Part shown: positions 185 to 46,224 of the stretch, in pieces | Layout: every line of letters begins with the position of its first letter | Numbering within the stretch: the first letter of the stretch is position 1 | IMG/VR virus record: IMGVR_UViG_3300025759_000098 | Span: 1 to 61,584 of that record | Source: a virus | Lineage: Duplodnaviria; Caudoviricetes | Length of the DNA stretch: 61,584 nucleotides | Direction: 5' to 3' (one strand) | The notes under the pieces: model-generated | What the model saw: the letters and a program-made list of their open reading frames with translations, nothing else | Told to the model about the DNA's origin: nothing | Database searches by the model: none | Made by a program: the position numbers and the translations under genes

Positions 185-850
185 ATGGGTAAGTTTAAAA
201 TGAAAGGACCCTCTCTATATAGAAAAGATCCTGTATCACCAATGAAACAAGATAATAGCTTAAGTGAGTATGATGAGCAGGGAACTTTTACGGGAAATGT
301 ACTACCAACGGCTAGTGATGAATTAAAAGATAACAGGTACATGACAAGTGGTGGTGAGTTTACATCAAGACCTATGAGTAAAGGAGAACAAAAGCAAGCT
401 GATTACGCTACAATGTTTACGAAAGGCAAAGGTGATAATCTTAGATATGGAGACAAATCGATACCTGGAAGAACACAGTGGATTAGAGAAAATTATGGTA
501 GAGGCTTGAGCAAGAGAGAACAAAGAAAGGCAGAAATAGCTTTTTACAAAGCACATCCTCCTTCGTCGTTTAGAGTCCCAGCAGGACAAGGTGGTGAACG
601 ACCACAGCAGGGCACACAACAACCAACAGAAACAAAACAATCTCAGAGATATACAATTGAAGAAAAAGGAGATGATCCGACAGAATTAACTAAAGCAGTA
701 TCTCAAGGATATTTTAAACGAGGACAAGGAAGTGAGTATTACAAAAACAGACCAGTACCATCTGACTTTGACGTACCAGGTGAGTATGTAGAAGCTATCA
801 CTAAATTTGATGAAGAATTCAAGAAAAAGTACCCTAACGCAAAATTATAA
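185..850 (+). CDS. Hypothetical protein with FKMKG leader (putative virion cargo)
   Basis: 221-aa ORF; starts MGKFKMKG, followed by SPMKQ box. Confidence 0.75.
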   Translation: MGKFKMKGPSLYRKDPVSPMKQDNSLSEYDEQGTFTGNVLPTASDELKDNRYMTSGGEFTSRPMSKGEQKQADYATMFTKGKGDNLRYGDKSIPGRTQWIRENYGRGLSKREQRKAEIAFYKAHPPSSFRVPAGQGGERPQQGTQQPTETKQSQRYTIEEKGDDPTELTKAVSQGYFKRGQGSEYYKNRPVPSDFDVPGEYVEAITKFDEEFKKKYPNAKL

Positions 851-873
851 ACTTTAAAGTAAAAAATAAAACA

Positions 874-1803
874 ATGGCATTTAAAATGAAAGGTGACCCA
901 TACAAAATGGGTAAAATCGCAACTAAGAATACTATGGCTCAAATGAGAACATCGTACAAGATGAAAGAAGCTATGGCTAAAATGAAACATGGAGAAAACA
1001 CTAAATCTCCCGATAAAGACGGAATTACTATGAAGAAAAATTCTCCATACCCAGCCGCTAAACCAGATTATCCAGACATCGATGGAGATGGTAACACTAC
1101 TGAGTCTATGAAAAAAGCCGCTGCTGACAAAAAGTCATCACCAGCACAAATGGAAGCAAAAAAAATAATATCAAAATCCGGAGATAAAATTATGTATGCT
1201 AAAGGTGGTAGACATTCGGCGGACGGAAGTACAAAGGAAAAAGGTAGATATACCACTTATACTAAAAAAGACGATGGTACTTATACTAAAAAAGTAGAAA
1301 CAGCTAAAAAAGGATCTAAGAGTGACGATGATAAAAAAGTAAGAAAAGAAAAAACTATTTCTGCTAAAAGAGCTGAGCGTCAAATAAAAAGAAAAGCAAG
1401 AAAAGCAGATAAAAGCGAAAGAAAAGCTGATGTTAAATTCATGAAATCACGTGCTAAACAAGCGGTAAAAGCAGGGGCTGATAAAAAGAAAGTAAGAGCT
1501 GATCTTAAAAAAATAAAAAAAGATATAAAAAATAGACCTTCAGAGCCTATTCCAACAGTCAAATCAAAAACAAAAAGGCCTACGCCAGTAACTATGAAGT
1601 CGCCTTTAGAACAAGAGAAAATTAAAAATAAAAAAAGAAAATTATCAGTATTAGATAAATTGTCTGCAGCTAGCAGGGCTATATCAACATCTGAAGGACC
1701 TTTTGGAGACACTAACTTTATGGATCGTTATAAAGAAGCAAAAAGAGGAATTAGAAAAACAGGTATAAGATCTAAAGATGCGTTAATGGGAAGCAATCGA
1801 TAA
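874..1803 (+). CDS. Lys-rich protein with MAFKMKG leader (putative cargo polyprotein)
   Basis: 309 aa; MAFKMKG start; SPAQM and SPLEQ boxes; DIDGDG acidic loop. Confidence 0.75.
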   Translation: MAFKMKGDPYKMGKIATKNTMAQMRTSYKMKEAMAKMKHGENTKSPDKDGITMKKNSPYPAAKPDYPDIDGDGNTTESMKKAAADKKSSPAQMEAKKIISKSGDKIMYAKGGRHSADGSTKEKGRYTTYTKKDDGTYTKKVETAKKGSKSDDDKKVRKEKTISAKRAERQIKRKARKADKSERKADVKFMKSRAKQAVKAGADKKKVRADLKKIKKDIKNRPSEPIPTVKSKTKRPTPVTMKSPLEQEKIKNKKRKLSVLDKLSAASRAISTSEGPFGDTNFMDRYKEAKRGIRKTGIRSKDALMGSNR

Positions 1804-1831
1804 ATAAATTATTAACCATAAATAAAACGTT

Positions 1832-2083
1832 ATGTCAGGATTTAAAATGAAAGGAAGCCCAATGCAGAGAAACTTTGGTGTAGGAGCTTCACCAGTGAAA
1901 CACGGTGACGGTTCTTGGGGTGGAACAGACGAAGCGCCTGTAGTAGAAAATGTTATGGAGAAAAAGGCTCAAGCTAGACAAACAAAAAAAGTACCTCAAC
2001 CGCCACCAAGAACAGAATTTCACACAGACAAAACATATGCGCTAACATTAGCTAAATGGAAGCGTGATAATGGAATAGAATAA
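1832..2083 (+). CDS. Small protein with FKMKG leader
   Basis: 83 aa; MSGFKMKGSPM...SPVKH. Confidence 0.7.
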   Translation: MSGFKMKGSPMQRNFGVGASPVKHGDGSWGGTDEAPVVENVMEKKAQARQTKKVPQPPPRTEFHTDKTYALTLAKWKRDNGIE

Positions 2084-2115
2084 CAAAATAATTATTAACC
2101 AAAAATAAAACCAAA

Positions 2116-2406
2116 ATGACCTATTTGTATTACAAGACCAGTACACTAACTGGCAACCAAAAACCTAATGAAAAAACTATTAACCAATGGAAACATCTTT
2201 CAGATAAAAAGAACTGGAGGATAACTCAATTAGCTAATGGTTATTATCAAACCGAAGTGTCTGAACCAGAAACCGATAATTGGCACGCGGTAACAAGAAG
2301 AGAAACAATAGAAGGTGCCGAAGCCGCTATTGAAGGTAGCATCGAGCACTTTTCTAAGAAACTAGAGTCTGTAAAAGGACCTAAAGTAATAAAAACTTTT
2401 AAATAA
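2116..2406 (+). CDS. Hypothetical phage protein
   Basis: 96-aa ORF with A-rich upstream region, in the co-oriented gene run. Confidence 0.7.
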   Translation: MTYLYYKTSTLTGNQKPNEKTINQWKHLSDKKNWRITQLANGYYQTEVSEPETDNWHAVTRRETIEGAEAAIEGSIEHFSKKLESVKGPKVIKTFK

Positions 2407-2413
2407 AAAAAAT

Positions 2414-2944
2414 ATGGCGTATAAACAAAAAGGTTTTCCAATGCACTCTGTGTCTGCTTTAAAAATGGAAGAGCCTAGAATAGCGAGACGTAGACAAACA
2501 GATTCAGGTATGATGGATAAACCGCAACAGCGTGAAGCTAGATTGGAACGACCAGAAAGAGATCCAATGGCAGAAATGCGTAGAAAAAAACTACAAGGAT
2601 TAATGGACGAACCAGTAAAACCACCAGTTGAAAGATCAATGGTTGAAGAATCAATGATGAAAGGTGCTAATATAGGTGGAGCTGTATCTCCTAGTCAAGT
2701 TGAGACTACACAAAGTACTAGTGGAATGCCTACGTTTAATATCTCTGATTTAGAGGGTGTATCTGATAAGAGAAAATCTATAGCTTATGGTAACATTGCT
2801 GACACACCTAAAAATCAAGCGTTAATACAGAAACAACAAGAATTAAACGAGTGGAAAAATAATAATCCAGATATGTCAGACGCAGATTTTGCTAATTGGC
2901 AAAAACAGATGAATCTAATACGGTCTCAGTTTACTCATAACTAA
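2414..2944 (+). CDS. Hypothetical protein with MAYKQKG leader variant
   Basis: 176 aa; MAYKQKGFPM resembles MAFKMKGFPM of ORF 5627. Confidence 0.7.
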   Translation: MAYKQKGFPMHSVSALKMEEPRIARRRQTDSGMMDKPQQREARLERPERDPMAEMRRKKLQGLMDEPVKPPVERSMVEESMMKGANIGGAVSPSQVETTQSTSGMPTFNISDLEGVSDKRKSIAYGNIADTPKNQALIQKQQELNEWKNNNPDMSDADFANWQKQMNLIRSQFTHN

Positions 2945-2981
2945 TAGAACGCGTAAAAAATTTAATTTAATTTAATAAAAT

Positions 2982-4547
2982 ATGGAATACAATCTACCTA
3001 GCGAGATTGTCAAAGACTTAAACTTTGGCAATGACGCTAAAAAACGAATAATTGCTGGTGTTCATAAGCTAGCACAAGCCGTAAAATCCACACTAGGCGC
3101 TTCTGGTAAGTGCGTAATATACGAAGATGGACGCGGTAAACCGGTTATCACAAAAGACGGAGTAACAGTAGCAGAATCTGTTGTCTTGTTTGATCCGGTT
3201 GAAAACATGGGAGCTACACTTATTAAAGAAGCAGCAAGAAATACTGTAAAAGAAGCCGGAGATGGTACTACTACAGCTACAGTTCTTGCTGAAGCCCTCA
3301 TAAAACAAGTTAACCACGAAAAATACCATGGTACTTCTATAAGAGAAATAAAAGAAGGTATCAATTCTTGTCTTGAAAAAGTAAATAATTACCTAAATGG
3401 CGCTAAAATAGACGTAAAAGGTAACATGTTACACAATGTTAGCGCTATTAGCTGTAATAACGACAAAGAATTAGGTAAAATTATATCAGAAGCTTACGAA
3501 AAAGTAGGTGAAAACGGTGTAGTTTTAATGGAAGAGTCACCAACAGAAGAAACTTACGTTGAGATTGTTGATGGAGCGCAAATAGAGTGTGGTTTAACAT
3601 CACCTCACTTTATAACAGATACTGAAAAACAAAGATCTGTACTAGAAAATCCATATATTCTTATTGTAGAGTCAGAAATACCTAACGTTAGAAAAATACA
3701 AAACGTATTAGAGTTCGTAATTAAGCAAAACCGAGCTTTACTTATAGTAGCTTCAGTAGCACAGCAGGTAAAGTCAGCGCTTTTAATGAATAAAGTTAAA
3801 GGTAATATCAAAGTAAACATAATAGACTTACCAGGCTTTGGTCCTACTAAGAGAGACACTGTAAAAGATTTAGCTATTTTAACAAATGCCATTGTTATAA
3901 ACGAAGAGCTAGGTGATGATTTAGACGGTATATCACTAGATGTGCTAGGTGAAGCTAAGAAAACTGTTACCGAAGACAGAAATACTATAATAACTACTTT
4001 AGACACTGATCAAGAGATAGAAGAAAGAATAAAAGAAGTACATAAACTAATAAAAAAAGAAAAGAACGGTTATATAAAGAAAAAACTAGAAGAAAGACTA
4101 GCTTTATTATCAGGTTCTGTAGGTGTTATAAAGGTTGGTGCTGATTCAAAAGTAGAGCTAAAAGAAAAGAAAGATAGAGTAGAAGATGCTATATATGCCA
4201 CAAAGGCGGCCTTAAAAGAAGGTATCGTACCAGGAGGTGGTGTAGCGCTATTAAACGCATCGGAAAGAGTATGCTCTGAGAATATAGGTGAAACAATACT
4301 ATTAAACGCTATTACAGCTCCTTGTGAAACTATATTATCTAACGCTGGTATAGAAAAAGAAGGAGAACTTGCTGAAGGCCGTGGTATTGATGTTGTAACT
4401 GGTAAAGAGGTTGACATGGTAGAGTTTGGTATCATAGATCCAGTACTTGTTACTAAGACAGCACTTAAAAATGCCGTTTCTGTTGTAACTACTATTATAT
4501 CCGCTGATTGTGTAATTTCAAATATTAGACTAAATGAAGGCAGTTAA
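2982..4547 (+). CDS. groEL: Phage chaperonin GroEL (Cpn60)
   Basis: ITKDGVTVA, AGDGTTTATVLA, EGIVPGGG and GIIDP motifs; no C-terminal GGM tail. Confidence 0.95.
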   Translation: MEYNLPSEIVKDLNFGNDAKKRIIAGVHKLAQAVKSTLGASGKCVIYEDGRGKPVITKDGVTVAESVVLFDPVENMGATLIKEAARNTVKEAGDGTTTATVLAEALIKQVNHEKYHGTSIREIKEGINSCLEKVNNYLNGAKIDVKGNMLHNVSAISCNNDKELGKIISEAYEKVGENGVVLMEESPTEETYVEIVDGAQIECGLTSPHFITDTEKQRSVLENPYILIVESEIPNVRKIQNVLEFVIKQNRALLIVASVAQQVKSALLMNKVKGNIKVNIIDLPGFGPTKRDTVKDLAILTNAIVINEELGDDLDGISLDVLGEAKKTVTEDRNTIITTLDTDQEIEERIKEVHKLIKKEKNGYIKKKLEERLALLSGSVGVIKVGADSKVELKEKKDRVEDAIYATKAALKEGIVPGGGVALLNASERVCSENIGETILLNAITAPCETILSNAGIEKEGELAEGRGIDVVTGKEVDMVEFGIIDPVLVTKTALKNAVSVVTTIISADCVISNIRLNEGS

Positions 4548-4791
4548 TTATTACATAATCATAGATCAAATAAAAGATGAGCCTAAGAAAGTTGGTGGAT
4601 TAATACTAACAGAAAGTGTAGATGATGACAATAGGTACTTAAAAGCTAAAGTTATATCTATTGGTAATCTTGTAGAAGGAGTATGTATTAACGATGTTAT
4701 ATATTACGATAAACACGCAGGCCACGGTATACAACATAAAGATAAATTTTACCACGTTATAAAACAACAAGACGTGGTACTTATAGATTAG
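4534..4791 (+). CDS. groES: Co-chaperonin GroES (Cpn10)
   Basis: 85 aa; KKVGGLIL mobile loop, KAKVISIG; overlaps end of groEL. Confidence 0.85.
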   Translation: MKAVNYYIIIDQIKDEPKKVGGLILTESVDDDNRYLKAKVISIGNLVEGVCINDVIYYDKHAGHGIQHKDKFYHVIKQQDVVLID

Positions 4792-4869
4792 ACCTAAGCC
4801 AGAAACCAAAAACCTTAAACTTAAAACAAACAAACAATTAACCTAATTATTAACTAAAAAATTACAATT

Positions 4870-5178
4870 ATGAAAATGTTTCATTTTGTTGACGCTGCAG
4901 GTACAGACGAACACATTGTACCTATTTCAGAGATCAAAACCATTAAAGTAGCTGATGCGACTTCGGTGATTATATATATCACATCTTTTGATCCAGCTGT
5001 AGCAGCTTATGGTAACGTTGATTTAACAGTTACATCTGGTAAATCTGACGAAGTTGCTTTAAGATTAGCGGAGTACATGTCATCAACTAGTATTGGTGGT
5101 AATAACACGCTTACTATTAAAGCATCTACAGCTCCATTTACAGAAATAAGCGCAGTTGCATGGACTGATGGTGCTTAA
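4870..5178 (+). CDS. Hypothetical protein, possibly structural
   Basis: 102-aa Thr/Ala/Val-rich ORF. Confidence 0.65.
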   Translation: MKMFHFVDAAGTDEHIVPISEIKTIKVADATSVIIYITSFDPAVAAYGNVDLTVTSGKSDEVALRLAEYMSSTSIGGNNTLTIKASTAPFTEISAVAWTDGA

Positions 5179-5184
5179 TCTTAA

Positions 5185-5625
5185 ATGAGATTAACCGCGC
5201 AAGATCTGCGTGAAATGAATATCCTTAAGTATTACAGGCTCACAAGAAAGTGGGCTTGTAAGACTTACGGATTAACAGATGCAGATTTAGAATTATTAAT
5301 TTACTTAGATTGTAAAGGAAGATTTACACGAAACGAATTTATAGATGGTACTTATACCATGAGCTGGGATAAAAACCGGTGGGAAAAACTAAGAAGAGAA
5401 GGTTGGATAGAAACTTGGAGACACAGAAACAGAACTACAATAAAGTTTTCGGTGTTTAAAACCTCGTTCAAATGTTCTCAGTTAATAAGTAGAATATATA
5501 GAATACTTTTAGGACAAGAAGACCTACCTACTTCAGAGAGAAGTAAGTTTTATAATAACAAATCATATACAGATAAAGTTTATAATAAAGCTATAGATGA
5601 TATGATAAAAGATAAAGACAGATAA
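5185..5625 (+). CDS. Putative winged-helix (MarR-like) DNA-binding protein
   Basis: YGLTDADLELLIYL...LRREGWIE pattern resembles a wHTH; function inferred. Confidence 0.5.
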   Translation: MRLTAQDLREMNILKYYRLTRKWACKTYGLTDADLELLIYLDCKGRFTRNEFIDGTYTMSWDKNRWEKLRREGWIETWRHRNRTTIKFSVFKTSFKCSQLISRIYRILLGQEDLPTSERSKFYNNKSYTDKVYNKAIDDMIKDKDR

Positions 5626-5626
5626 T

Positions 5627-6001
5627 ATGGCATTTAAAATGAAAGGCTTTCCTATGATACAAGGATCTTCGCCTGCAAAGAACTACAATAATTTACAAAA
5701 CTATAAAGTGTTTAATATGGGCAATAAACCTGATGGTCCATTTAAACAAGACGACACACCGGGATCACAAAACCCTAAATTTCCAGAAGTAGTGTACACT
5801 ATAGATGGTAAGGCAGTTAAAAGTATTGATATCAACGAAGGGCGGTTAGATTTAAAACCAAGTATAGGGCCAAAAGGAAAATATGTAAACTATGATAAAG
5901 GTGATGGTACAAAAATAAAATACTACTACAAAAACCCTGTAAAAGCACCAGATCAAGGTAAGTTTAGTGATTTAGAAAAATACGACGACGATAAAAACTA
6001 A
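5627..6001 (+). CDS. Small protein with MAFKMKG leader
   Basis: 124 aa; MAFKMKGFPM, SPAKN, GPFKQ. Confidence 0.7.
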   Translation: MAFKMKGFPMIQGSSPAKNYNNLQNYKVFNMGNKPDGPFKQDDTPGSQNPKFPEVVYTIDGKAVKSIDINEGRLDLKPSIGPKGKYVNYDKGDGTKIKYYYKNPVKAPDQGKFSDLEKYDDDKN

Positions 6002-6010
6002 AATACAACT

Positions 6011-6466
6011 ATGGGATTTAAAATGAAATACAAAAACCTCCAAGAGGTAGTAAATCAATTAAGAAATGCCGTAAAAGCGCACGGCAAACAAGCTGATGTT
6101 GTAGAGAAGCATATAAAAGAGATGGATAAAAAGTCACCTTTAGAGCAAGAAGATGATCCAGGCTATACTGGTCTTAACTTCGACCCATCCGCTAGCTACA
6201 CTACAACAGGTGTTAAAATACCTGGTTTTAGAGATTTTGTTAGTTTAGAGCAGCAGAAAGCTATTAATAAAAGAATAGACGAAAGAAGGGCTAAAAAAAG
6301 AAAACAAAAAGAATTTAAAGAATTAGAAGAAGCAGGAGGAGGTAAACTTTCTCAAGAACAGTTAGATTATCAAAGATCAACAACAGATCCCGAGGCAGTA
6401 GTAAAAACACCTGGTGATGAGGAAAACGTGTTAAACATAAACACTAGTAGTAACTATGGCATTTAA
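6011..6466 (+). CDS. Protein with MGFKMK leader
   Basis: 151 aa; internal KSPLEQE identical to that in ORF 874. Confidence 0.7.
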   Translation: MGFKMKYKNLQEVVNQLRNAVKAHGKQADVVEKHIKEMDKKSPLEQEDDPGYTGLNFDPSASYTTTGVKIPGFRDFVSLEQQKAINKRIDERRAKKRKQKEFKELEEAGGGKLSQEQLDYQRSTTDPEAVVKTPGDEENVLNINTSSNYGI

Positions 6467-6851
6467 GATTAACAAATCAATAGTAAGAGGTACTGGTGAG
6501 CATAAAGATCTAGTGTTTAAAATGAAAAGAAAAAAACTAGGTAATGGTATTGCTGGTGAAGCTAATAATGACGGTACAATATTTGTTAGTAAAGACATAC
6601 CTAAAAATAGTCCTTTAGAAGCGGAAGTAGTTGCTCACGAAGGAGATCATATGCTACGTATGGAAACTGGTGAGTTAGGGTATGATGACAACTCTGTAAC
6701 TTGGAGAGGTAATAAATATCCTAGAAAAGACGGTAAAATAAAATATAAGGGGTCATGGAAGCCCGAAGGTGATAAATCATTTCCATGGGAAAAATTAGCG
6801 TACAAAGTAGGTACGAAAGCTAAAAAAGAAGCTACAAAAAAAAATAAATAA
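6456..6851 (+). CDS. Putative zincin-like metalloprotease (HExxH)
   Basis: VVAHEGDH at ~6627-6650, preceded by GxA..DGTIFV strand; MAFK start and internal FKMK. Confidence 0.6.
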   Translation: MAFKINKSIVRGTGEHKDLVFKMKRKKLGNGIAGEANNDGTIFVSKDIPKNSPLEAEVVAHEGDHMLRMETGELGYDDNSVTWRGNKYPRKDGKIKYKGSWKPEGDKSFPWEKLAYKVGTKAKKEATKKNK

Positions 6852-6853
6852 AA

Positions 6854-7231
6854 ATGGCAAGAAAATCAAAAGCAAAATTTAAAATGAAGGGTCACACCCT
6901 TCCTGGTATAAACCAAAAATCAGAAACACCAAATTTAAAAGATGGTAGATCACCTTCTTCTGCATTTCAAATGGAAACAAGTGGTGACAGTCCAAATAAG
7001 TTTTTAGGAGCTGGATTAATTGGTGCTGGTATTGGAGCATTAGGAAAAACTAAGTTTGGTAAAAATATAATGAACAAAGGTAAAGGATTACTAGGTGGTG
7101 TAGCTGGTAAAATATTCGGTGGTAAAGGTGGTGGAGGTGACGCTGGAGCTGCAGGAGGTCTTAAAGAAAAAATGGCTCAAAAAGTAGATGAAAAAGTAGA
7201 CGAGGCAGTAGAAGGAGCTTTAGAAGAATAG
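6854..7231 (+). CDS. Gly-rich protein with FKMKG leader
   Basis: 125 aa; AKFKMKG, SPNKF, then Gly-rich hydrophobic segment. Confidence 0.7.
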   Translation: MARKSKAKFKMKGHTLPGINQKSETPNLKDGRSPSSAFQMETSGDSPNKFLGAGLIGAGIGALGKTKFGKNIMNKGKGLLGGVAGKIFGGKGGGGDAGAAGGLKEKMAQKVDEKVDEAVEGALEE

Positions 7232-7232
7232 T

Positions 7233-7625
7233 ATGAGTATATTAGGTAAAATATTTTCAGGTGGAGCTACTGAATTAGTAAAAGGTGTAGGTGGTGTTAT
7301 AGATACTCTACACACTTCTAAAGAAGAAAAGCTTGAAGCTGAAAGAAAAATAAAAGATATGATAATGGGTTACGAAGCTGAGATGCAAAAGCAAGTAACT
7401 GAAAGATGGAAGGTTGATATGCAATCTGATTCTTGGTTATCAAAAAATATAAGACCATTAGTTTTAATATTCTTATGTGTATCAACAGTGTTGTTAATAT
7501 TTATCGATGCTGGTGTTATATCATTTGAAGTTAAAGCTTCATGGGTAGACTTATTACAATTAGTATTAATAACAGTGATCGGTGCTTACTTTGGTGGTAG
7601 ATCACTAGAAAAAGTAAAAAAATAA
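7233..7625 (+). CDS. Putative holin (GTA/3TM holin-like)
   Basis: SDSWLSKNIRPL motif, two hydrophobic helices, GAYFGGRSLEK end. Confidence 0.7.
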   Translation: MSILGKIFSGGATELVKGVGGVIDTLHTSKEEKLEAERKIKDMIMGYEAEMQKQVTERWKVDMQSDSWLSKNIRPLVLIFLCVSTVLLIFIDAGVISFEVKASWVDLLQLVLITVIGAYFGGRSLEKVKK

Positions 7626-9098: not shown

Positions 9099-9303
9099 AA
9101 AAATTACCGTAGGTAAAGACTATAAGGAAAACGCTATGCACTACGCTGTAGGCCAAGATGTTTATGGTGGGCATACTATATCTAATATTGTTGAAGATGA
9201 AGATAAGTATTCTATATATATAAAAAAGAATAAAGACGTTTTACCTTGGAAAGACTTTAACAAGAACATGGCAATATCTGTAGAATATAATTTAGAGTAC
9301 TAA
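9082..9303 (+). CDS. Hypothetical protein
   Basis: 73 aa; overlaps both neighbours. Confidence 0.65.
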   Translation: MAKLIRKITVGKDYKENAMHYAVGQDVYGGHTISNIVEDEDKYSIYIKKNKDVLPWKDFNKNMAISVEYNLEY

Positions 9304-9893
9304 TGAAAGCACCTTTTGACTTTGTTATAGAGCCAAAAGGTAGTAGATATAACAATATAACTAAAGTTGGTGATAAAGATCTTATTATTAACACTGAAAT
9401 ATTTAATCATCAATTTGTAAATAGAGAAGCTATTGTTAAATCTGTACCTACAGCTTATAAAACAAAAATAAAACCAGGAGATACTATTATAACTCACCAT
9501 AACGTTTTTAGAAGATGGCTTGATGTCAAGGGAAGAGAAAAGAACAGTAGAAGTTTTTTTAATGAAAATACTTATCTTATAAAAGAAGATCAAATATTTT
9601 TATACAAAAGAAATGACAAGTGGAAAGCTACAGATGGTTACTGTTTTGTACAACCTATAAAACAAAGAAACTCGTTAGATGTAGAGACAGAAGAACAGTG
9701 TGTAGGTATAGTTAAGTATACCGACGGTGTTAATGAGATTGGTGATCTTGTAGGATTTACACCTTTTTCAACTTACGAGTTTGTTATAGACGGTAAACGT
9801 TTATATAGAGTTATGAATAAATTTATTACAATTAAATATGAATACCAAGGAAACGAAGAAGCTTATAATCCAAGCTGGGCACAAAGCAGTTGA
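9303..9893 (+). CDS. Hypothetical protein, possibly with tandem GroES-like folds
   Basis: Two repeats of a GroES-like pattern (FVIEP...IVKSV...IKPGD; FVQP...GIVKY...IGD); fold is inferred. Confidence 0.5.
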   Translation: MKAPFDFVIEPKGSRYNNITKVGDKDLIINTEIFNHQFVNREAIVKSVPTAYKTKIKPGDTIITHHNVFRRWLDVKGREKNSRSFFNENTYLIKEDQIFLYKRNDKWKATDGYCFVQPIKQRNSLDVETEEQCVGIVKYTDGVNEIGDLVGFTPFSTYEFVIDGKRLYRVMNKFITIKYEYQGNEEAYNPSWAQSS

Positions 9894-10116
9894 AGAACTT
9901 ATCAATGTAGCTAGAGAAAAGATTATTACTAATACAGAAGATGATGTTTCTGCTGATAGACTGAAGAACGCTGCAGCTACTAAAAAACTAGCAATATTTG
10001 ACGCGTTTGAAATACTTAACAGAATTCAAGAAGAAAATAACATCCTTGAGGGCAAAACACCTGAAAAGGCAGAGAAAAAAGTCTTTAAAGGATTCGCAGA
10101 AGGTAGATCTAAGTAA
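9838..10116 (+). CDS. Putative terminase small subunit
   Basis: Helical 92-aa ORF coupled by TAATG to the large terminase; assigned by position. Confidence 0.45.
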   Translation: MNTKETKKLIIQAGHKAVEELINVAREKIITNTEDDVSADRLKNAAATKKLAIFDAFEILNRIQEENNILEGKTPEKAEKKVFKGFAEGRSK

Positions 10117-12332
10117 TGTACAGTCAAAGTTTAGTTAAGGTCATAGAACCTGTAAAGAAAACAACAATCACACGTTTAAACCGTGGTAAAAAATGGAAAT
10201 ATGGATACAATAAAGAACATGATATTGTCGTTATATCAAAAACTGGTAAAATTGGTGAAATACTTGAAATCCAAAACTTGCGCATTGCTTTACCACCTGT
10301 GCCCGTGCAAGTACATGGACTGCAAGAAAATAAGTGGAAAAAAATAGATTATCCTCAAGAACTACAAAGAATTAAAAACATATTCGACTGGAGAGCTTAC
10401 CCCGAAGAAAGTAAAGATCAATGGTTCGATTATATAGACGAGGAGTTTAAAAGAAGAGATGAGGGCTTTTGGTTTATGAATAACGGTAAACCAACTTGGA
10501 TAACAGGCACACACTACATGTATTTACAATGGAGCAAGATTGATGTTGGGGCTCCAGATTATAGAGAAGCTAATAGACTGTTTTATATATTCTGGGAAGC
10601 TTGTAAAGCAGATAAAAGATGTTATGGTATGTGTTACCTTAAAAACAGGCGTTCTGGTTTTAGTTTTATGTCTTCAGCTGAAACAGTTAATTTAGCTACA
10701 ATATCAAGTGATAGTAGATATGGTATATTATCTAAATCAGGTGCTGACGCTAAAAAAATGTTTACTGATAAAGTTGTACCAATTAGTATTAACTATCCTT
10801 TCTTTTTCAAACCGATACAAGACGGTATGGATAGACCAAAGTCAGAACTTGCTTATAGAGTACCAGCTAGTAAGTTTACAAGAAAGAAGATTACAACAAA
10901 CGAACAGCTTGAAGATATTAAAGGGTTAGACACAACTATAGATTGGAAAAATACTGGTGACAATAGTTATGATGGAGAAAAACTTAATTTATTAGTTCAC
11001 GATGAAAGTGGTAAGTGGGAAAGACCAGATAATATATTAAACAATTGGAGAGTTACTAAAACTTGTTTAAGGTTAGGTGCTAAAATAGTTGGTAAGTGCA
11101 TGATGGGTTCAACATCAAACGCTTTAGACAAAGGTGGAGATAATTTTAAAAAACTATATAATGATTCTGACGTTACCAAGCGAAATAGAAATGGACAGAC
11201 AAAATCTGGTTTATATTCTCTTTTTATTCCAATGGAGTGGAACTATGAAGGATTTATTGATGAATACGGAAGTCCAGTATTTAATAACCCAAACGATGAT
11301 GTCCTCGGACCAGATGGTGAACTAATAGATATAGGAATAATAGAGCACTGGAACAACGAAGCAGAGGGTTTAAAAGGAGATCCAGATGCTTTAAATGAGT
11401 TTTACAGACAGTTTCCGCGAACTGAAGAACACGCGTTTAGAGATGAAACAAAAAATAGTATATTTAACCTAGTTAAGTTATACGAACAAATAGATTATAA
11501 CGAGGGTATAGGTAGCTCCTCTGTTGTAAATACCGGTAACTTTCAATGGGTAAACGGTATTAAAGACACACAGGTTATATTTTATCCAGACCCACAGGGT
11601 AGATTTAAAATTAGCTGGACACCACCACAACACCTGCAAAATAAAATAATAGTCAAAGGTGGTATTAAATATCCAGCAAACGAACACATGGGTGCTTTCG
11701 GTTGTGACAGTTATGATATATCAGGAACAGTAGACGGTAGAGGTTCTAATGGTGCTTTGCACGGGTTAACTAAGTTTAGCATGGAAGACGCTCCACCTAA
11801 TCAGTTTTTTTTAGAGTATATAGCTAGACCACAAACAGCTGAAATATTTTTTGAAGATGTGTTAATGTCGCTAGTATTTTATGGTATGCCATTACTAGCA
11901 GAAAATAATAAACCAAGGTTGTTATACTATTTAAGACGTAGAGGTTATAGAGGTTATAGTATGAATAGACCTGACAAGGTTTGGAACAAACTATCGGTAA
12001 CAGAAAGAGAGATAGGCGGTATACCAAACTCAAGTGAAGATATAAAACAAGCTCATGCTGCCGCTATAGAGATGTATATACAACAGCACGTGGGTCATTT
12101 AGGCGATGGTAATTACGGTAACATGTATTTTAATAACACACTAAATGATTGGGCTAGATTTGATATAAACAAAAGAACAAAGTTTGACGCAACAATAAGT
12201 AGTGGATTAGCTGTTATGGCCTGTAATAGACATTTGTATGCTCCAAACGCAATAATAGAAAAACCAAAATTAAACATAAATATTGCTAGATATTCTAATA
12301 CAGGCGGTATGTCCAAATTAATTAAAGAATAA
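10116..12332 (+). CDS. terL: Terminase large subunit
   Basis: LKNRRSGFS Walker A-like, LVHDESGKW Walker B, GCDSYD nuclease motif; upstream of portal. Confidence 0.9.
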   Translation: MYSQSLVKVIEPVKKTTITRLNRGKKWKYGYNKEHDIVVISKTGKIGEILEIQNLRIALPPVPVQVHGLQENKWKKIDYPQELQRIKNIFDWRAYPEESKDQWFDYIDEEFKRRDEGFWFMNNGKPTWITGTHYMYLQWSKIDVGAPDYREANRLFYIFWEACKADKRCYGMCYLKNRRSGFSFMSSAETVNLATISSDSRYGILSKSGADAKKMFTDKVVPISINYPFFFKPIQDGMDRPKSELAYRVPASKFTRKKITTNEQLEDIKGLDTTIDWKNTGDNSYDGEKLNLLVHDESGKWERPDNILNNWRVTKTCLRLGAKIVGKCMMGSTSNALDKGGDNFKKLYNDSDVTKRNRNGQTKSGLYSLFIPMEWNYEGFIDEYGSPVFNNPNDDVLGPDGELIDIGIIEHWNNEAEGLKGDPDALNEFYRQFPRTEEHAFRDETKNSIFNLVKLYEQIDYNEGIGSSSVVNTGNFQWVNGIKDTQVIFYPDPQGRFKISWTPPQHLQNKIIVKGGIKYPANEHMGAFGCDSYDISGTVDGRGSNGALHGLTKFSMEDAPPNQFFLEYIARPQTAEIFFEDVLMSLVFYGMPLLAENNKPRLLYYLRRRGYRGYSMNRPDKVWNKLSVTEREIGGIPNSSEDIKQAHAAAIEMYIQQHVGHLGDGNYGNMYFNNTLNDWARFDINKRTKFDATISSGLAVMACNRHLYAPNAIIEKPKLNINIARYSNTGGMSKLIKE

Positions 12333-12333
12333 T

Positions 12334-14724
12334 ATGAGAGGTAACTATAATTTTCCAAGCCAAGTAGTTAGCGATATAGAAAAATCATCGCAGGAGTACG
12401 GTCTAAAAGTAGCTAGAGCTATTGAGGCCGAGTGGTTTGATGGTGAAAGAAACGGTAGGAATAGATATTCTAACCATATAAATAATTTCCACAGACTAAG
12501 ACTATACGCTAGAGGAGAACAATCAATACAAAAATACAAAGATGAGTTATCAATAAATGGTGACTTAAGCTATTTAAACCTAGACTGGAAACCAGTTCCA
12601 ATTATACCTAAATTTGTAGATATTGTTGTAAACGGTATATCTGAAAGACAATACTCTATAAAAGCATATTCTCAAGATCCATACGGAGTAGAAAAAAGAA
12701 CTGCTTATATGGAGGGAGTTTTAAAAGACATGAGAGCTAAAGAGTTTGATAAAATGGCTCAAAACTTAATGAACATGGACTTTACACAAAACAAGGGTGA
12801 AGATGTTCCAGAGACTCAAGAAGAATTAGACTTACATATGTCTTTAAATTATAAGCAGTCTGTTGAGATAGCTGAAGAACAAGCTATAAACACTTTGTTA
12901 GACGGTAACAAATATGATTTAACTAGAAGAAGATTAATATATGATTTAACTGTTTTAGGTATTGGTGCTTGTAAAACTTCTTTTAATACTTCTGAAGGTG
13001 TTACGGTTGATTACGTTGATCCAGCTAATCTAGTATACTCTTATACTGAATCACCTTATTTTGATGATTTGTATTATGTTGGAGAAGTAAAGTCAGTCCC
13101 TGTAAACGAATTGATAAAACAATTTCCAAATATATCTAACGAAGAGTTAAAAGAAATAACAGAAAATAATTATAAGCATAACTATAGATACAGTAACCGT
13201 AGAGCTTATAATGAAGAAGATAAAAATAAAATAGACGTATTGTACTTTAACTATAAAACTTTCAATCACGAAGTGTACAAGTTAAAAGAAACATCTGTTG
13301 GGCTACAAAAACTTATAGAAAAAGACGATAGCTTTAACCCACCCGTAGGTGAGAATTTAGCGTTTGAAAGACTAGGTAGAAAGATAGAGTGTTTATACGA
13401 GGGTGTGTTAATATTAGGCACTGGTAAATTACTTAAATGGAGTAAGGCTAAAAACATGATGCGTCCTAAAAGTGATTTTACTAAAGTAACAATGAACTAT
13501 TCTATATGTGCACCACGTATGTATGAGGGTAGGATAGAAAGTTTAGTTAGTAGAATAACTGGGTTTGCAGATATGATACAGCTAACACACTTGAAACTAC
13601 AGCAAGTAATGTCACGTATGATACCTGATGGTATTTATTTAGATGCTGATGGTTTGGCAGAGATAGATTTAGGTAACGGAACAAACTATAATCCACAAGA
13701 AGCCTTAAACATGTTCTTCCAAACTGGTAGTATAATTGGTAGATCGCAAACAATAGATGGTGCTCCTAATCCAGGTAAAATACCTATTCAAGAAATACAG
13801 TCAGGTGGTGGTGCTAAAATGCAAAGTTTAATTGGTACATACAATTATTACTTGCAAATGATTAGAGATACTACCGGGTTGAACGAGGCTAGAGATGCGG
13901 CTACACCAGATCCAAAGGCTTTAGTCGGTGTACAGAAGTTAGCAGCTGCAAATAGTAATACAGCTACTAGACACATATTACAAGGTGGAGCGTTTTTAAC
14001 ACAAGAGATATGTGAGCAAATATCTTTAAGAATATCAGATATATTAGAATATTCTCCAACCGCAAATGCTTTTATACAAGCTATAGGTTCTCATAATGTA
14101 GCTACGTTACAAGAAATGAAAAACTTACATCTATATGACTTTGGTATATTTTTAGAGTTAGCACCAGATGAAGAAGAAAAGCAGTTGTTAGAAAACAATA
14201 TACAAACAGCCTTGTCTCAACAAACAATAGACTTAGAAGATGTAATTGATTTAAGAGAAATAAAAAATATAAAACTTGCAAATCAACTTTTAAAAATACG
14301 TAGAAAAAAGAAAATGCAAAAAGACCAGCAAATGCAACAGCAAAATATGCAAGCGCAAGCCGAGTCTAATGCACAGCAACAACAAGCAGCGGCCCAAGCT
14401 GAAATGCAAAAATCTAAAGCGGCTTTAGAAAACGAAATGATGTTTGAAGCTAAAAAATCAGAGTTGGCAACTGCTAAATTAAAAGCTGAAGCTGATATGA
14501 AGAAGATGCTAATGGACCACGAGTTTGAGTTGAACATACGTATGAAGAAAATGGAGATGGAACAAATGCAAGAAAAAGATCTTTCAAAAGAAACGTTAAA
14601 AGGTCAAAACCAAGTTAAAACACAACAAGTAAAAAATCAAGCAGAAAAAGCAAAAGGCTTTGAGTCTTCTGGTAATGATGTACTTGGTGGTGGTATGAGG
14701 CTAGGTGCTTTTGACCCTCAATAA
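12334..14724 (+). CDS. Portal protein
   Basis: 796 aa after terL; PIIPKFVDIVVNG; Gln-rich C-terminal coiled coil as in podoviral portals. Confidence 0.85.
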   Translation: MRGNYNFPSQVVSDIEKSSQEYGLKVARAIEAEWFDGERNGRNRYSNHINNFHRLRLYARGEQSIQKYKDELSINGDLSYLNLDWKPVPIIPKFVDIVVNGISERQYSIKAYSQDPYGVEKRTAYMEGVLKDMRAKEFDKMAQNLMNMDFTQNKGEDVPETQEELDLHMSLNYKQSVEIAEEQAINTLLDGNKYDLTRRRLIYDLTVLGIGACKTSFNTSEGVTVDYVDPANLVYSYTESPYFDDLYYVGEVKSVPVNELIKQFPNISNEELKEITENNYKHNYRYSNRRAYNEEDKNKIDVLYFNYKTFNHEVYKLKETSVGLQKLIEKDDSFNPPVGENLAFERLGRKIECLYEGVLILGTGKLLKWSKAKNMMRPKSDFTKVTMNYSICAPRMYEGRIESLVSRITGFADMIQLTHLKLQQVMSRMIPDGIYLDADGLAEIDLGNGTNYNPQEALNMFFQTGSIIGRSQTIDGAPNPGKIPIQEIQSGGGAKMQSLIGTYNYYLQMIRDTTGLNEARDAATPDPKALVGVQKLAAANSNTATRHILQGGAFLTQEICEQISLRISDILEYSPTANAFIQAIGSHNVATLQEMKNLHLYDFGIFLELAPDEEEKQLLENNIQTALSQQTIDLEDVIDLREIKNIKLANQLLKIRRKKKMQKDQQMQQQNMQAQAESNAQQQQAAAQAEMQKSKAALENEMMFEAKKSELATAKLKAEADMKKMLMDHEFELNIRMKKMEMEQMQEKDLSKETLKGQNQVKTQQVKNQAEKAKGFESSGNDVLGGGMRLGAFDPQ

Positions 14725-14752: not shown

Positions 14753-15916
14753 ATGGCAAAAAAAGAAAACAAGGCTGAAGAGCCAAAGGTAGATAATACC
14801 GTAGAAAAAATTAAAGTTAAAAGAAAACCTAAAAAGTTTTCAGATGTTAATGAGACTATAAAAGTTGATTTAACTAAAAAACCAGAAGTCAAAGAAGAGG
14901 TAACAAAAGTTGATTTAGCTGAGAAACCAGAGGTTAAAGAAGAAACACCAGTTGTTGAAGCTGTAGAAGAAGTAAAAGAAACTCCTGTTAAAGAAGAAGT
15001 AAAAGAAACTCCTATTGTAGAAGAGATTACTAATGAAGAAAAAACAGAAGTTACACCTACACCAACACCTGTAAAACAAGAAATAAAACAACCAGAGTTA
15101 CCAGAGAATATACAGAAGTTAATGAGCTTCATGGAAGAGACTGGTGGTGATCTAAACGACTATGTACAACTTAATAGAGATTACTCTGATATGGATAATC
15201 ATACTTTATTAAGAGAGTATTACAAACAAACTAAACCTCATCTTCAACCAGATGAAATTGATTTCATGATGAATGATCAATTTTCTTATGACGAAGAAGA
15301 AGATGAGACAGATATAAAAAGAAAAAAACTAGCGTTAAAAGAGCAAGTTGCCAACGCTAAAACTCAACTGGAAGAGTATAAATCCAAATACTATGAAGAT
15401 ATTAAGGCTGGAAGTAAATTAACAAACGAACAACAGAAAGCTATTGATTTCTTTAATAGATACAACAAAGAGTCTGAGCAAAAAGAAAAAGCTCGTTTGC
15501 AGGCAAAAACTACTTTCCAAAACAAAACAGACCAATTATTTAGTGACGAGTTCAAAGGTTTTGAATATAATGTCGGAGACAAAAGATATAGGTTTAATGT
15601 TAAGGATGTTAGTGAAGTAAAAGAAAACCAAAGTAATATGGATAATTTTATCAAGAAGTTCTTGAATGAAAACAACCAAATTGAAGACGCTGCTGGTTAT
15701 CATAAATCAATGTTTACTGCGAACAATGCTGACGCTATAGCTAAGCACTTCTACGAACAAGGTAAAGCTGATGCTTTAAAAGACAGCATGGCTAAATCTA
15801 AAAACATCGATATGTCACCTAGAGGTTCACACGGAGACGATACGAATAGTGGAGGTTTAAAGTTTAAAGTGTTAAATGATAGCTCGGCCCCTACGTTTAA
15901 ATTTAAAAAAAAATAA
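14753..15916 (+). CDS. Capsid scaffolding protein
   Basis: Acidic low-complexity N-terminus (EEVKETP repeats), coiled coil; lies between portal and capsid genes. Confidence 0.7.
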   Translation: MAKKENKAEEPKVDNTVEKIKVKRKPKKFSDVNETIKVDLTKKPEVKEEVTKVDLAEKPEVKEETPVVEAVEEVKETPVKEEVKETPIVEEITNEEKTEVTPTPTPVKQEIKQPELPENIQKLMSFMEETGGDLNDYVQLNRDYSDMDNHTLLREYYKQTKPHLQPDEIDFMMNDQFSYDEEEDETDIKRKKLALKEQVANAKTQLEEYKSKYYEDIKAGSKLTNEQQKAIDFFNRYNKESEQKEKARLQAKTTFQNKTDQLFSDEFKGFEYNVGDKRYRFNVKDVSEVKENQSNMDNFIKKFLNENNQIEDAAGYHKSMFTANNADAIAKHFYEQGKADALKDSMAKSKNIDMSPRGSHGDDTNSGGLKFKVLNDSSAPTFKFKKK

Positions 15917-40714: not shown

Positions 40715-40993
40715 ATGGCAAAAGAATTAAACGAAGATACTAGCTTTCAAATAAGCATTAAGACACTAGGTGGTATAGCTGCTTTAATAGCTACATTAGT
40801 AGGTATGTGGTTTACTTTGCAGGCAGACATTGCTGAAGCAAAAGAGTTACCAGCACCACCAGACCCTGAGGTTACACGTATGGAGTTTGACATGAAGGAT
40901 CAAATGATACGACAAACTATCATGACTACACAGGACGACGTTAAAGAAATTAAAAAGTCTATTGAAAAAATAGAAGAAAAACTTTACGAATAA
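40715..40993 (+). CDS. Single-TM membrane protein with coiled coil
   Basis: LGGIAALIATLVGMWF hydrophobic segment. Confidence 0.65.
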   Translation: MAKELNEDTSFQISIKTLGGIAALIATLVGMWFTLQADIAEAKELPAPPDPEVTRMEFDMKDQMIRQTIMTTQDDVKEIKKSIEKIEEKLYE

Positions 40994-41331
40994 TGAAAAA
41001 AATTATATTAATAGTATTAATGTTTTTATTTGTAAGTGCTAATAGCCAAAACATTTGCAAGACAGATGTATGTGTAGTTGAGTTTAATGCTGGTTGGAAC
41101 AAAGCTAATAGTGTAGACTGGTTAGATAAGTTAAATGATTGTGGAGTTCAAAGAATAAATATAGACGAAGGTGATTGGCAAAAGAAATATAATATAGTTG
41201 TAGTACCTACAATTATAGTTTTCAACGGTGAAGAAGTAAAACGTTATCAAGCAGATCTTAGTTTTACTATGGCTGTAACAAGAAAAGAAGTACAGGAAGA
41301 AGTTGACGAGATATTAATGGAAGATTTTTAA
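40993..41331 (+). CDS. Exported thioredoxin-fold protein lacking CxxC
   Basis: Signal peptide; VVEFNAGWN, YNIVVVPTIIVF.GEEVKR. Confidence 0.7.
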   Translation: MKKIILIVLMFLFVSANSQNICKTDVCVVEFNAGWNKANSVDWLDKLNDCGVQRINIDEGDWQKKYNIVVVPTIIVFNGEEVKRYQADLSFTMAVTRKEVQEEVDEILMEDF

Positions 41332-41333
41332 TC

Positions 41334-41723
41334 ATGGCTTACAAACAACCAAATAATCCTTTTGTTAAAACACAGTGTGGTAGACGTTACGCTCCTCTTG
41401 CTGTACAAATAAAAGCAAAGTTTAATTCTCCTTTTGCAAAAGCAGATCCACCTAGAACTATAGGTAAAGGTAAAAATTTTAATCCAGTTTCAGAAGACAA
41501 AGGCGCTACAGGCGCGGCAGCTGGAGGAGGTATGAGTCCAAGAGGAGTAGCTGCATACAAACGTAATAACCCAGATAGTAAATTAAAAACAGCAGTAACA
41601 ACCAAACCTTCAAAGTTAAAACCAGGTAGCAAGGCGGCTAAACGTAGAAAATCGTTTTGTGCTAGATCAAAAAGCTGGACTAGTGAAAGAGGTAAAGCAG
41701 CAAGAAGAAGATGGAACTGTTAA
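41334..41723 (+). CDS. Basic protein with MAYKQ leader
   Basis: 129 aa; SPFAK box, then GGMSPRGVAAY...KRRKSFCAR...RRWNC. Confidence 0.75.
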   Translation: MAYKQPNNPFVKTQCGRRYAPLAVQIKAKFNSPFAKADPPRTIGKGKNFNPVSEDKGATGAAAGGGMSPRGVAAYKRNNPDSKLKTAVTTKPSKLKPGSKAAKRRKSFCARSKSWTSERGKAARRRWNC

Positions 41724-41754: not shown

Positions 41755-41925
41755 ATGAGAAACGCACCATTAAAAGCATTTGCATCACCTGTTAAAGGTA
41801 AGAAAGATGCATGCTATCATAAAGTAAAAGCAAGTGCCGATGTGTGGCCTAGTGCTTATGCCTCAGGTAGACTTGTACAGTGTAGAAAAGTTGGCGCTGC
41901 TAACTATGGTAAAAGTAAAAAGTAA
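41755..41925 (+). CDS. 56-aa basic protein (not in ORF track)
   Basis: Hand-translated MRNAPLKAFASPVKGKKDACYHKVKASADVWPSAYASGRLVQCRKVGAANYGKSKK; TAATG coupling to the next gene. Confidence 0.75.
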   Translation: MRNAPLKAFASPVKGKKDACYHKVKASADVWPSAYASGRLVQCRKVGAANYGKSKK

Positions 41926-42572
41926 TGGCTTACGATATTAAATCTAAGTTTAAAGCTAACAGTCCTCTTCCTTGTTGGAAAGGTTATGAACGTGTACCTG
42001 GTACAAGGCCAGGCGCAAAGGGTAGTTGTCGTAAATCTTCACCTACTAAACATGGTTCACTCGAAGACTTTCAGCGTGGAAGAAACGGTCACAACCCAGA
42101 CACTATGTCAGCAAAGCACGAAGACTTTCATTTGAAACAATCTAAGAGCTCACCTAATAAAACTATGGGTTACGAGGTTAAAATAGAAAAAGGTAAGGTT
42201 GTTAGTGAGAAAGAAAGACCTCACAATAATTTTAAACCAGGTAGAGAAGGTGAAAGTCAACACGAAGCTTATCATAATAGATTTCCAGAAAAACCTTTTA
42301 CAGACGCAGAAGGTAGACCTTTAAAACAACAGAAAGGTGGTGGTACTAAAAAAGTATGTTTACCCAAAGCAAAAGTAAACGCAATGAGTGAGTCTAAAAG
42401 AAAGTCGTTAGCTAGCGCTAAAAGCAAAGCTGGTTCTAAAGGTGAGTACAAAAGACCATCGAGTACTAATGTAAAAGGTGCTCGTAAAAAAGGAGCTACA
42501 CTAAAAGACTGGTTTGAAAAAGAAAACTGGGTACAAGTTGGTAACCCAAGTAAAAAATGTGGAGAAGCATGA
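41925..42572 (+). CDS. Basic multi-module protein punctuated by SP boxes
   Basis: SPLP-CWKGY, SPTKH, SPNKT, RPLKQ, LKDWFEKENWV. Confidence 0.75.
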   Translation: MAYDIKSKFKANSPLPCWKGYERVPGTRPGAKGSCRKSSPTKHGSLEDFQRGRNGHNPDTMSAKHEDFHLKQSKSSPNKTMGYEVKIEKGKVVSEKERPHNNFKPGREGESQHEAYHNRFPEKPFTDAEGRPLKQQKGGGTKKVCLPKAKVNAMSESKRKSLASAKSKAGSKGEYKRPSSTNVKGARKKGATLKDWFEKENWVQVGNPSKKCGEA

Positions 42573-45813: not shown

Positions 45814-45909
45814 ATGAAAGGTAGATTTTGTAAATGGTTTCAAGCAATAACGTTTGGATTAGTATGTTTTGGTTGGTGTAAAATGTGTTGTAATAATTGT
45901 GAGTGTTAA
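45814..45909 (+). CDS. 31-aa Cys-rich micropeptide (not in ORF track)
   Basis: MKGRFCKWFQAITFGLVCFGWCKMCCNNCEC; fills the gap exactly; TAATG coupling. Confidence 0.6.
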   Translation: MKGRFCKWFQAITFGLVCFGWCKMCCNNCEC

Positions 45910-46223
45910 TGGCTTTTAAAATGAAAGGATGGAGCCCATTTGCTCAAAAACCAAAGACTAGACAAGGTGATGTTTACGTTGGTGATAAGAAGTTTTCAGA
46001 CAAACCAATGTACGAAGGACAAAAACCGTCTACACATCTAATGGCTTATGGAGAATCTGATGGTAAGTTTGTAGCTTATCCTACTTTGTTTCAAGATGAC
46101 GATGGTACATGGCAGCAACCAGATGATGCTTTTAGAGAAGCTATAAAGAGAAAAGAAATATATCAATTTAACACAGAACAAGAAGCAAAAGAATTTGCTG
46201 ATGGTAGCTGGAAAAATAAATAA
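45909..46223 (+). CDS. Protein with MAFKMKG leader
   Basis: Start moved to ATG 45909: MAFKMKGWSPFAQK. Confidence 0.75.
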   Translation: MAFKMKGWSPFAQKPKTRQGDVYVGDKKFSDKPMYEGQKPSTHLMAYGESDGKFVAYPTLFQDDDGTWQQPDDAFREAIKRKEIYQFNTEQEAKEFADGSWKNK

Positions 46224-46224
46224 T

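Follow-up and report, generated by a model that had tools for sequence, protein, structure and literature searches.

The FKMKG-tagged genes of the window

The IMG/VR virus record IMGVR_UViG_3300025759_000098, of the flavobacterial podophage type, uncultured and marine, has been analysed over its whole length of 61,584 bases, which is referred to here as the window (linear, 34% G+C, 95% complete according to CheckV). Its late genes lie on the + strand from position 185 to about 47.6 kilobases (kb), and the replication and nucleotide-metabolism genes on the - strand from 47.6 kb onward. The subject of this study is a short peptide with the consensus MAFKMKG, hereafter the tag, which is found in canonical, variant or degenerate form at or near the N-terminus of eleven small proteins encoded on the late, structural strand, and which is tentatively read here as an address for incorporation into the virion. 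A first-pass annotation of the sequence had quoted these eleven N-termini, and all of them are present at their coordinates. The open reading frames (ORFs) are as follows, with lengths in amino acids (aa) and, for some, the isoelectric point (pI):

185..850, + strand: tagged protein of 221 aa, MGKFKMKG; pI 9.3, low hydrophobicity, no Pfam or PHROG family
874..1803, + strand: tagged protein of 309 aa, MAFKMKG; 22% Lys, net charge +50
1832..2083, + strand: tagged protein of 83 aa, MSGFKMKG
2414..2944, + strand: tagged protein of 176 aa, variant tag MAYKQKG, which recurs in relatives
5627..6001, + strand: tagged protein of 124 aa, MAFKMKG; its metagenomic homologues are module mosaics
6011..6466, + strand: tagged protein of 151 aa, MGFKMKY
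6456..6851, + strand: tagged mini-zincin of 131 aa, MAFKINK; HExxH at residues 61-65
6854..7231, + strand: tagged protein of 125 aa, tag set back by 8 residues (MARKSKAKFKMKG); C-terminal half Gly-rich
41334..41723, + strand: protein of 129 aa, degenerate tag MAYKQP; pI 11.1, C-terminal half matching phrog_10346
41925..42572, + strand: protein of 215 aa, degenerate tag MAYDIKSKFK; holds a CWKGYERVPGT module
45909..46223, + strand: tagged protein of 104 aa, MAFKMKG; directly upstream of the endolysin gene

Degenerate forms of the tag are those of 2414, 41334 and 41925, and the CWKGYERVPGT module of the 41925 ORF bears the canonical MAFKMKG in relatives. The protein of 874..1803 holds a PDIDGDGNTTESM module, which has also been found in metagenomic mosaics.

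The motif is commoner than chance. The six-frame translation of the window contains ten copies of FKMK, and eight of them belong to + strand ORFs, in which they fall inside the first 3-21 residues. A set of 71 non-overlapping ORFs of at least 45 aa gave nine N-terminal copies, within the first 25 residues, and no internal ones, where amino-acid composition predicts 0.015 N-terminal copies, and the 12-base DNA core TTTAAAATGAAR is present in 10 copies, compared with a mean of 0.11 and a largest count of 2 in 100 dinucleotide-preserving shuffles. The replication arm, from which the annotation had described the leader as missing, is not wholly free of FKMK. Two matches occur there on the - strand (61153 and 50441); homologues do not preserve them, or they fall within a helical ORF, and they seem fortuitous. 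For the 6456 ORF, its leader MAFKINK stands, and a second one that had been seen at residues 20-26 (VFKMKR) does not, because this segment corresponds in the alignment to TPIFRKKL of homologues, the initial beta-strand of the zincin fold. A Sec or lipoprotein signal has been dropped as a candidate explanation, the tag having no hydrophobic core, in agreement with the earlier description.

Beyond the N-terminus, an all-against-all BLASTP comparison of the eleven proteins gave only weak, composition-driven matches, the best of them at an E value of 1.5e-4 and 26% identity with low-complexity filters off. With nothing significant beyond the tag, the proteins are not full-length paralogues, and the earlier remark that they share no likeness outside the leader is confirmed. 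Nine of them have a pI of 9.2-11.1, the other values being 7.8 (6011) and 6.6 (45909); all have few hydrophobic residues, and they lie among structural proteins that are acidic.

Distribution of the tag and selection on the peptide

An exact scan of IMG/VR for ATGGCNTTYAARATGAARGG returned at least 136 stretches and, among the matches listed, 146 matches corresponding to 145 distinct proteins; the loci and codon contexts counted below refer likewise to the matches listed. Tag-bearing loci, 78 in number, were taken with 10-kb flanks, some of them overlapping on one contig. Homologues of window proteins are held by 76 of the 78, with large terminases (TerL) 72-89% identical, and the other two look like chance matches. 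The pooled sets comprise at least 288 tagged proteins, and after a redundancy cut at 50% identity in the 40 residues behind the tag at least 200 remain, mutually dissimilar. The tag therefore sits on non-orthologous, variable proteins in related phages, as had been anticipated from the window. Full-length homologues of most tagged proteins are found in 0-6 of the 78 loci, the exceptions being the 41334 protein (11) and the zincin (53), compared with 30-55 loci for the conserved neighbour genes.

In the sequence logo, M-A-F-K-M-K-G is followed by F, S, P, M or W, then by S or P and by two loosely hydrophobic positions, and the information content is at background by position +9. Natural variants in the ORF sets of the flanks show F/Y, M/L/I/Q and K/R/G, the replacements F/Y, M/L/I/Q and K/R being conservative. 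A homology search with the 5627 protein led to proteins that start with MAFKMKG and are mosaics of short shuffled modules.

Codon usage of the tag has been measured over 142 distinct contexts. The Gly codon is GGT in 37%, GGC in 23%, GGG in 20% and GGA in 19%; the Phe (TTT) and Lys (AAA) codons follow the genome bias and lie only slightly above it, and the Ala codon at position 2 favours GCA or GCG, a bias common in second codons. Synonymous sites thus vary, which indicates that selection acts on the peptide, and the same peptide occurs at the C-termini of other proteins, so that it is not a translation-start signal. The tag is a real element under peptide-level selection.

Its distribution is confined to one clade. 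In Maribacter phage Panino, uncultured podovirus MW202828, Cellulophaga phage phi38:1 and Flavobacterium phage elemoF no tagged N-termini were found, apart from that of the elemoF scaffold-position protein, which starts MFKMKLEG. The FKMKG-coding motif is present in none of five sister-clade records, namely a 98%-complete genome with a fused zincin and four partial records, and the small basic proteins of the sister-clade genome begin differently. When 50,697 deposited phage genomes were searched with the 5627, 1832 and 6456 proteins and with mosaic P0075, no tagged homologue was obtained, and the zincin matches were only marginal (E 0.06-0.9). A full-text search, in which subscription journals are not covered, returned no paper with the string FKMKG.

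Sister-clade genome G001 (loci L237-L240) has a shared N-terminus of its own. At 708-4043, two very basic small proteins (pI 10.8 and 11.7) that occupy the place of the window FKMKG proteins both begin MPLAKR[RK]T...

Nature of the tagged proteins

The first-pass annotation had envisaged a set of cargo or effector proteins behind the leader. No enzyme set has been found: 69 of 74 non-redundant tagged proteins (at least 90 aa, zincins excluded) belong to no Pfam family, and the remainder consists of three DUF6321 proteins, one nuclease with a false leader and one weak match. The tagged proteins are basic, low-complexity mosaics, and they look like internal or core proteins and not like an enzyme arsenal.

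DUF6321 (PF19846) is the only curated domain that recurs behind the tag, in the three of 74 proteins just mentioned (L146:1868-2179, L193:2428-2886 and L204:6858-7379). A beads-on-a-string architecture is seen in the window protein of 874-1803 and in metagenomic P0042 and P0076, where modules are shuffled among tagged proteins; these include KPDYPDIDGDGNTTESMKKAAADKK, which holds a DxDxDG calcium-loop-like motif, SPAKNYKNPQDYKVFNMGNKP, YKSDAQRKAVHASKAEK and SPxK-MYGKK repeats.

The mini-zincin and the giant protein

Of the tagged proteins, only the product of 6456-6851 is conserved throughout the clade (53 loci); it is absent from the four outgroups. It is present in 54 of the 78 tag-bearing loci, always as a small separate ORF. 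Residues H61, E62, H65, Y76 and E112, which make up HExxH and a downstream Glu, are invariant in an alignment of 35 members; zincin catalysis is putative. The AlphaFold2 model has a confident fold, with a predicted local distance difference test score (pLDDT) of 82, and a disordered N-terminal tag. Matches to known proteins are weak and all to zincins, namely selecase, abylysin, IrrE/PprI and SprT. Those in Pfam (M91, M90, eCIS_core and DUF2268) all fall below the cut-off, PF13699 being matched by 7 of the 35 members with a best E of 0.0069, below the curated threshold. A PDB profile match to the MJ1213 selecase (4qhf) has an E value of 0.002, and Foldseek gave a best E of 0.11, with top rows that are all zincins over about 50-60 residues.

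When 1.84 billion representatives were searched with a zincin profile, 631 proteins matched at E <=0.001. The best 150 of the 631 were classified, and all architecture and tag counts for zincins refer to these:

Small free zincins (up to 200 aa), n = 56: N-terminal tag 35, C-terminal tag 0, both 0, none 21
Zincin-first proteins of more than 200 aa, n = 37: N-terminal tag 12, C-terminal tag 16, both 0, none 9
Giants of at least 1000 aa with the zincin near the C-terminus, n = 40: N-terminal tag 0, C-terminal tag 0, both 0, none 40
Zincin fragments, n = 17: N-terminal tag 2, C-terminal tag 0, both 0, none 15

The tag is carried by 63 of the 93 free zincins, at one end only and never at both, and by none of the 40 giant-fused ones. 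Across architectures, it is used at either terminus, one tag to each free protein, and is absent when the domain is fused to a giant. The zincin-fused giants are homologous to the giant protein of the window (30503-40666, + strand, 3387 aa), with 44-46% identity over about 700 aa that lead directly into the zincin. The sister-clade homologues of the giant end in the zincin domain and the window giant ends in Cys-rich CCCH-like repeats, and the counterparts in phi38:1 and the elemo phages are labelled structural in database annotation. We read these architectures as suggesting that the tag replaces covalent attachment as the route of the zincin into the virion.

The C-terminal region of the giant, about 70 residues long, holds one or two Cys-rich repeats of the C-x8-C-x11-C-x2-H type, which are found in eight of nine distinct giants of the tag-bearing clade at the exact site of the sister-clade zincin. 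This Cys-rich end had been entertained as a receptor for the tag and was dropped, because both are strongly basic. A further arrangement occurs in one sub-clade (L241, L242 and L245, at about 9.7-11.6 kb in each), where the many small tagged genes give way to one protein of 457-539 aa that starts with the zincin, continues with a long stretch of low complexity and has the tag as its extreme C-terminus; no N-tagged ORF lies within 10 kb.

The scaffold-position protein

Between the portal and capsid genes lies a protein of 387 aa (14753-15916, + strand) whose termini both show basic alternating motifs, EKIKVKRKPKKF close to the N-terminus and LKFKV and TFKFKKK at the end. In 33 distinct homologues, the pattern [FY]K[MLIV]K occurs in the first 30 aa in 11 and in the last 25 aa in 12, and the roughly 330 residues between do not contain it in any of them; the background in 737 other ORFs of at least 150 aa is 7 for the first 30 aa and 5 for the last 25 aa. 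Near variants such as FSLKGK and LKIKK are shown by the 11 of the 33 homologues that fail the strict pattern, and the outgroup scaffold-position proteins also end in such motifs. In P22-like phages, the basic C-terminus of the scaffold binds the coat protein, and by this analogy a cargo tag that copies a scaffold motif would be a natural mechanism.

A proposed address tag for the virion

The explanation favoured here, to which a probability of roughly 45% is given, is that the tag is a virion-incorporation address, possibly trimmed by the zincin. M-A-F-K-M-K-G, followed by an aromatic or small residue, S or P, and one or two hydrophobic residues, would act as a short terminal address that recruits fast-changing small, basic, largely disordered proteins and the conserved mini-zincin into the assembling head. 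Recruitment would probably rely on mimicry of the motifs of alternating hydrophobic and lysine residues found at either end of the scaffold-position protein, so that both dock at the same procapsid site. In T4, the head protease trims the capsid targeting sequence, and the tagged zincin may then trim the tags in the same manner. The portable procapsid address of the first-pass annotation is retained in this form: portability is indicated by the at least 200 dissimilar carriers, the peptide-level selection and the use of either terminus, and the loss of the tag when the zincin is fused to the giant (0 of 40) and the likeness to the scaffold-position termini are consistent with an address. Binding to a procapsid component, packaging, cleavage and ejection are steps that we infer. 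Removal by a prohead protease as in T4, which had been cited as a precedent, is not borne out, no such PHROG family being matched among the 59 window proteins scanned; the tagged mini-zincin would be the only candidate processing enzyme, and the peptidase-like genes of the window are limited to it and the endolysin.

A more far-reaching version, possible and on balance rather doubtful, would make head loading programmable. Any protein furnished with a peptide of 8-11 residues at either end, copied from a scaffold docking motif and clipped off by a zincin packed along with it, would enter the procapsid; a constantly renewed cargo of basic DNA-coating or anti-defence proteins would in this way be carried to the next host, and the zincin, freed from a giant ejected protein, would have kept its place in the virion by means of the tag.

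Several observations weigh against the address explanation favoured here. The scaffold-like motif is loose, and its strict rule is unmet in the 11 of 33 homologues and in the window copy, which has an FKFK variant. A prohead protease was matched neither by PHROG families among the 59 window proteins nor by Pfam among 13. In the AlphaFold2 models the pLDDT of the tag stays below 50, in the window zincin as well as in the 446-aa P0121, where the tag is C-terminal; this is a weak negative that concerns pLDDT only. The link between the tag and free zincins rests on very few independent evolutionary events, and the structural-protein labels in relatives are database annotations as they stand. The invariance of the tag is overstated, since the tag sets were partly gathered by a DNA pattern requiring MAFKMKG, and no tagged protein has been found among cultured relatives.

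The association with the zincin lends itself to another explanation, in which the motif is a recognition or cleavage site of the enzyme, or an autoinhibitory peptide, and marks zincin substrates with no packaging role. The zincin is the one tagged protein that is clade-wide and it accompanies the tag in 54 of 78 loci; in cis, the motif stands at one terminus of 63 of 93 free zincins, and with its roughly 8-10 residues it is of a size that suits the footprint of protease subsites. Among solved folds, those of minigluzincins (selecase and abylysin) come closest, a family in which latency through a terminal tail placed in the cleft has been described. This explanation is nevertheless considered unlikely: none of the 40 zincins fused to a giant carries the motif in cis and it is missing altogether from the sister genome, which argues that the enzyme does not need it, and a cut made 3-8 residues from a C-terminus would remove next to nothing. 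As a weak negative, the AlphaFold2 models show no confident docking of the tag onto its own zincin domain.

The composition of the carriers has also to be considered. SPKK motifs have a DNA-binding role, and the tagged proteins are Lys-rich and of low hydrophobicity, with shuffled short modules and many SPxK-type repeats, so that the tag might be one of several short basic motifs in multivalent proteins that bind DNA or host factors (histone-H1- or protamine-like, SPxK-rich), its terminal position being incidental. The tag may sit 8-12 residues in, or internally in fusions, and related KM-x-GK repeats are present inside some proteins. A generic DNA-binding repeat would not, however, be expected to obey the rule of one tag at one end or to be carried by a folded protease, and all nine window copies of FKMK lie in the first 25 residues with none internal; such an origin is held to be distinctly improbable. 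Least credible of all is a tag devoid of function at the protein level, either as the remnant of a fast-diverging paralogue family or of recombination at gene starts, or as a start-site element of the mRNA (a translational operator or enhancer). A 14-base core is nearly identical among copies, the modules are visibly shuffled among tagged proteins, and the skewed Ala codon 2 (GCA/GCG) and the first Lys codon (AAA in 89%, compared with 76% genome-wide) resemble what is seen near start codons. An initiation signal cannot account for the same peptide at the C-termini of 16 proteins, however, and the Gly codon is free to vary at its wobble position. The tag has stayed fixed although all that follows it has diverged past recognition, which points to selection on the tag and away from a remnant.

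Comparison with known systems

To our knowledge, little is known, beyond the T4 capsid targeting sequence, on how tailed phages select the proteins that travel in the head. The system proposed here works like that sequence or like an encapsulin loading peptide, and it belongs to neither family. In a published account of T4 (PMC3012670), the internal proteins are described as diverse but for a conserved capsid targeting sequence, by which they are encapsidated into the scaffolding core. In both cases a short conserved N-terminal peptide is found on otherwise diverse, small, mostly basic proteins whose genes accompany those of the head, a likeness of arrangement, to which the comparison is confined. 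The present phage differs in being a podophage, with a P22-like portal annotation in relatives, and not a T4-like myovirus. A scan of 59 window proteins gave no match to a T4-type (gp21-type) prohead protease, no protease site can be recognised where the tag ends, and in this clade the tag also occurs at the C-terminus.

Short terminal peptides that dock cargo inside a shell of the HK97 fold are known from encapsulin cargo-loading peptides and from the C-terminal tail of HK97-type prohead proteases. The tag resembles the encapsulin peptide in standing at the N- or C-terminus of varied proteins (12 N-terminal, 16 C-terminal and none at both ends among the zincin-first proteins, and about 200 N-tagged proteins). 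The shell here differs in being a phage capsid which also takes up DNA, the motif is basic and alternating, unlike that of encapsulins, and its binding to the capsid is only proposed.

The zincin itself, at about 110 residues with HExxH and a downstream Glu, is comparable to the minigluzincins and to eCIS_core (formerly DUF4157) of contractile-injection-system cargo. It is set apart from these families by matches that all lie below curated thresholds and leave its C-terminal half (beta hairpins and a helix with E112) uncovered, and by occurring in two states, free with a tag or joined to a giant phage protein. Among related podophages, gp69 and gp80 of phi38:1 are likewise small, Lys-rich and of low complexity, lie ahead of lysis and structural genes and are annotated as structural in the record; unlike the tagged proteins, they have no FKMKG tag, and they show no detectable homology to them.

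If the address explanation is true, it would supply a packaging rule for a lineage of P22-like podophages frequently met in marine metagenomes, and the injected proteome of uncultured phages would be readable from sequence alone. A scaffold-derived peptide could then act from either terminus, and foreign proteins could be loaded into capsids by means of a compact tag. About 200 unannotated protein families would gain a testable location and role, and a widespread unannotated mini-zincin would be linked to virion biology.

Gene order and other features of the window

The remaining annotated genes of the late arm, which also encodes the tail proteins on the + strand, are arranged as follows:

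2982-4547, + strand: GroEL
4534-4791, + strand: GroES
7233-7625, + strand: holin
9303-9893: second, longer GroES-like protein of 196 aa (phrog_13932), ahead of the terminase
10116-12332, + strand: TerL
12334-14724, + strand: portal
15944-17374, + strand: major capsid protein (phrog_13704)
46195-46719, + strand: endolysin

The capsid protein is 45% identical to those of Panino and MW202828, and 38% to those of the Flavobacterium elemo phages and the Cellulophaga phi38:1 group. GroEL, GroES and the second GroES-like protein are all three kept in relatives and outgroups. A link between the tag and the phage GroEL/GroES was considered and dropped, the outgroups carrying chaperonins without the tag.

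Several further ORFs deserve mention. The 56-aa basic protein of 41755-41925 matches phrog_727, phrog_38880 and phrog_3477 (E 1e-20 to 1e-18); its domain, of the ACYHKVK...PSAYASG type, has a function-less label, is very widespread in phages and is fused behind the tag in relatives. Hydrophobic N-termini resembling signal peptides or those of lipoproteins are present on four ORFs (40993-41331, 42557-44764, 44761-45810 and 56643-57035), one of these N-termini ending in LTSC, which suggests that exported phage proteins adjoin tagged genes. At 55907-56662, a protein of 251 aa matches an RNA polymerase sigma-factor PHROG (phrog_351, E 1e-23), so that the phage may direct its own late transcription. 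The late arm ends in two tandem paralogues, 46746-47162 (138 aa) and 47190-47609 (139 aa), both of which begin MATTTA.(L/I)TLTSTD.

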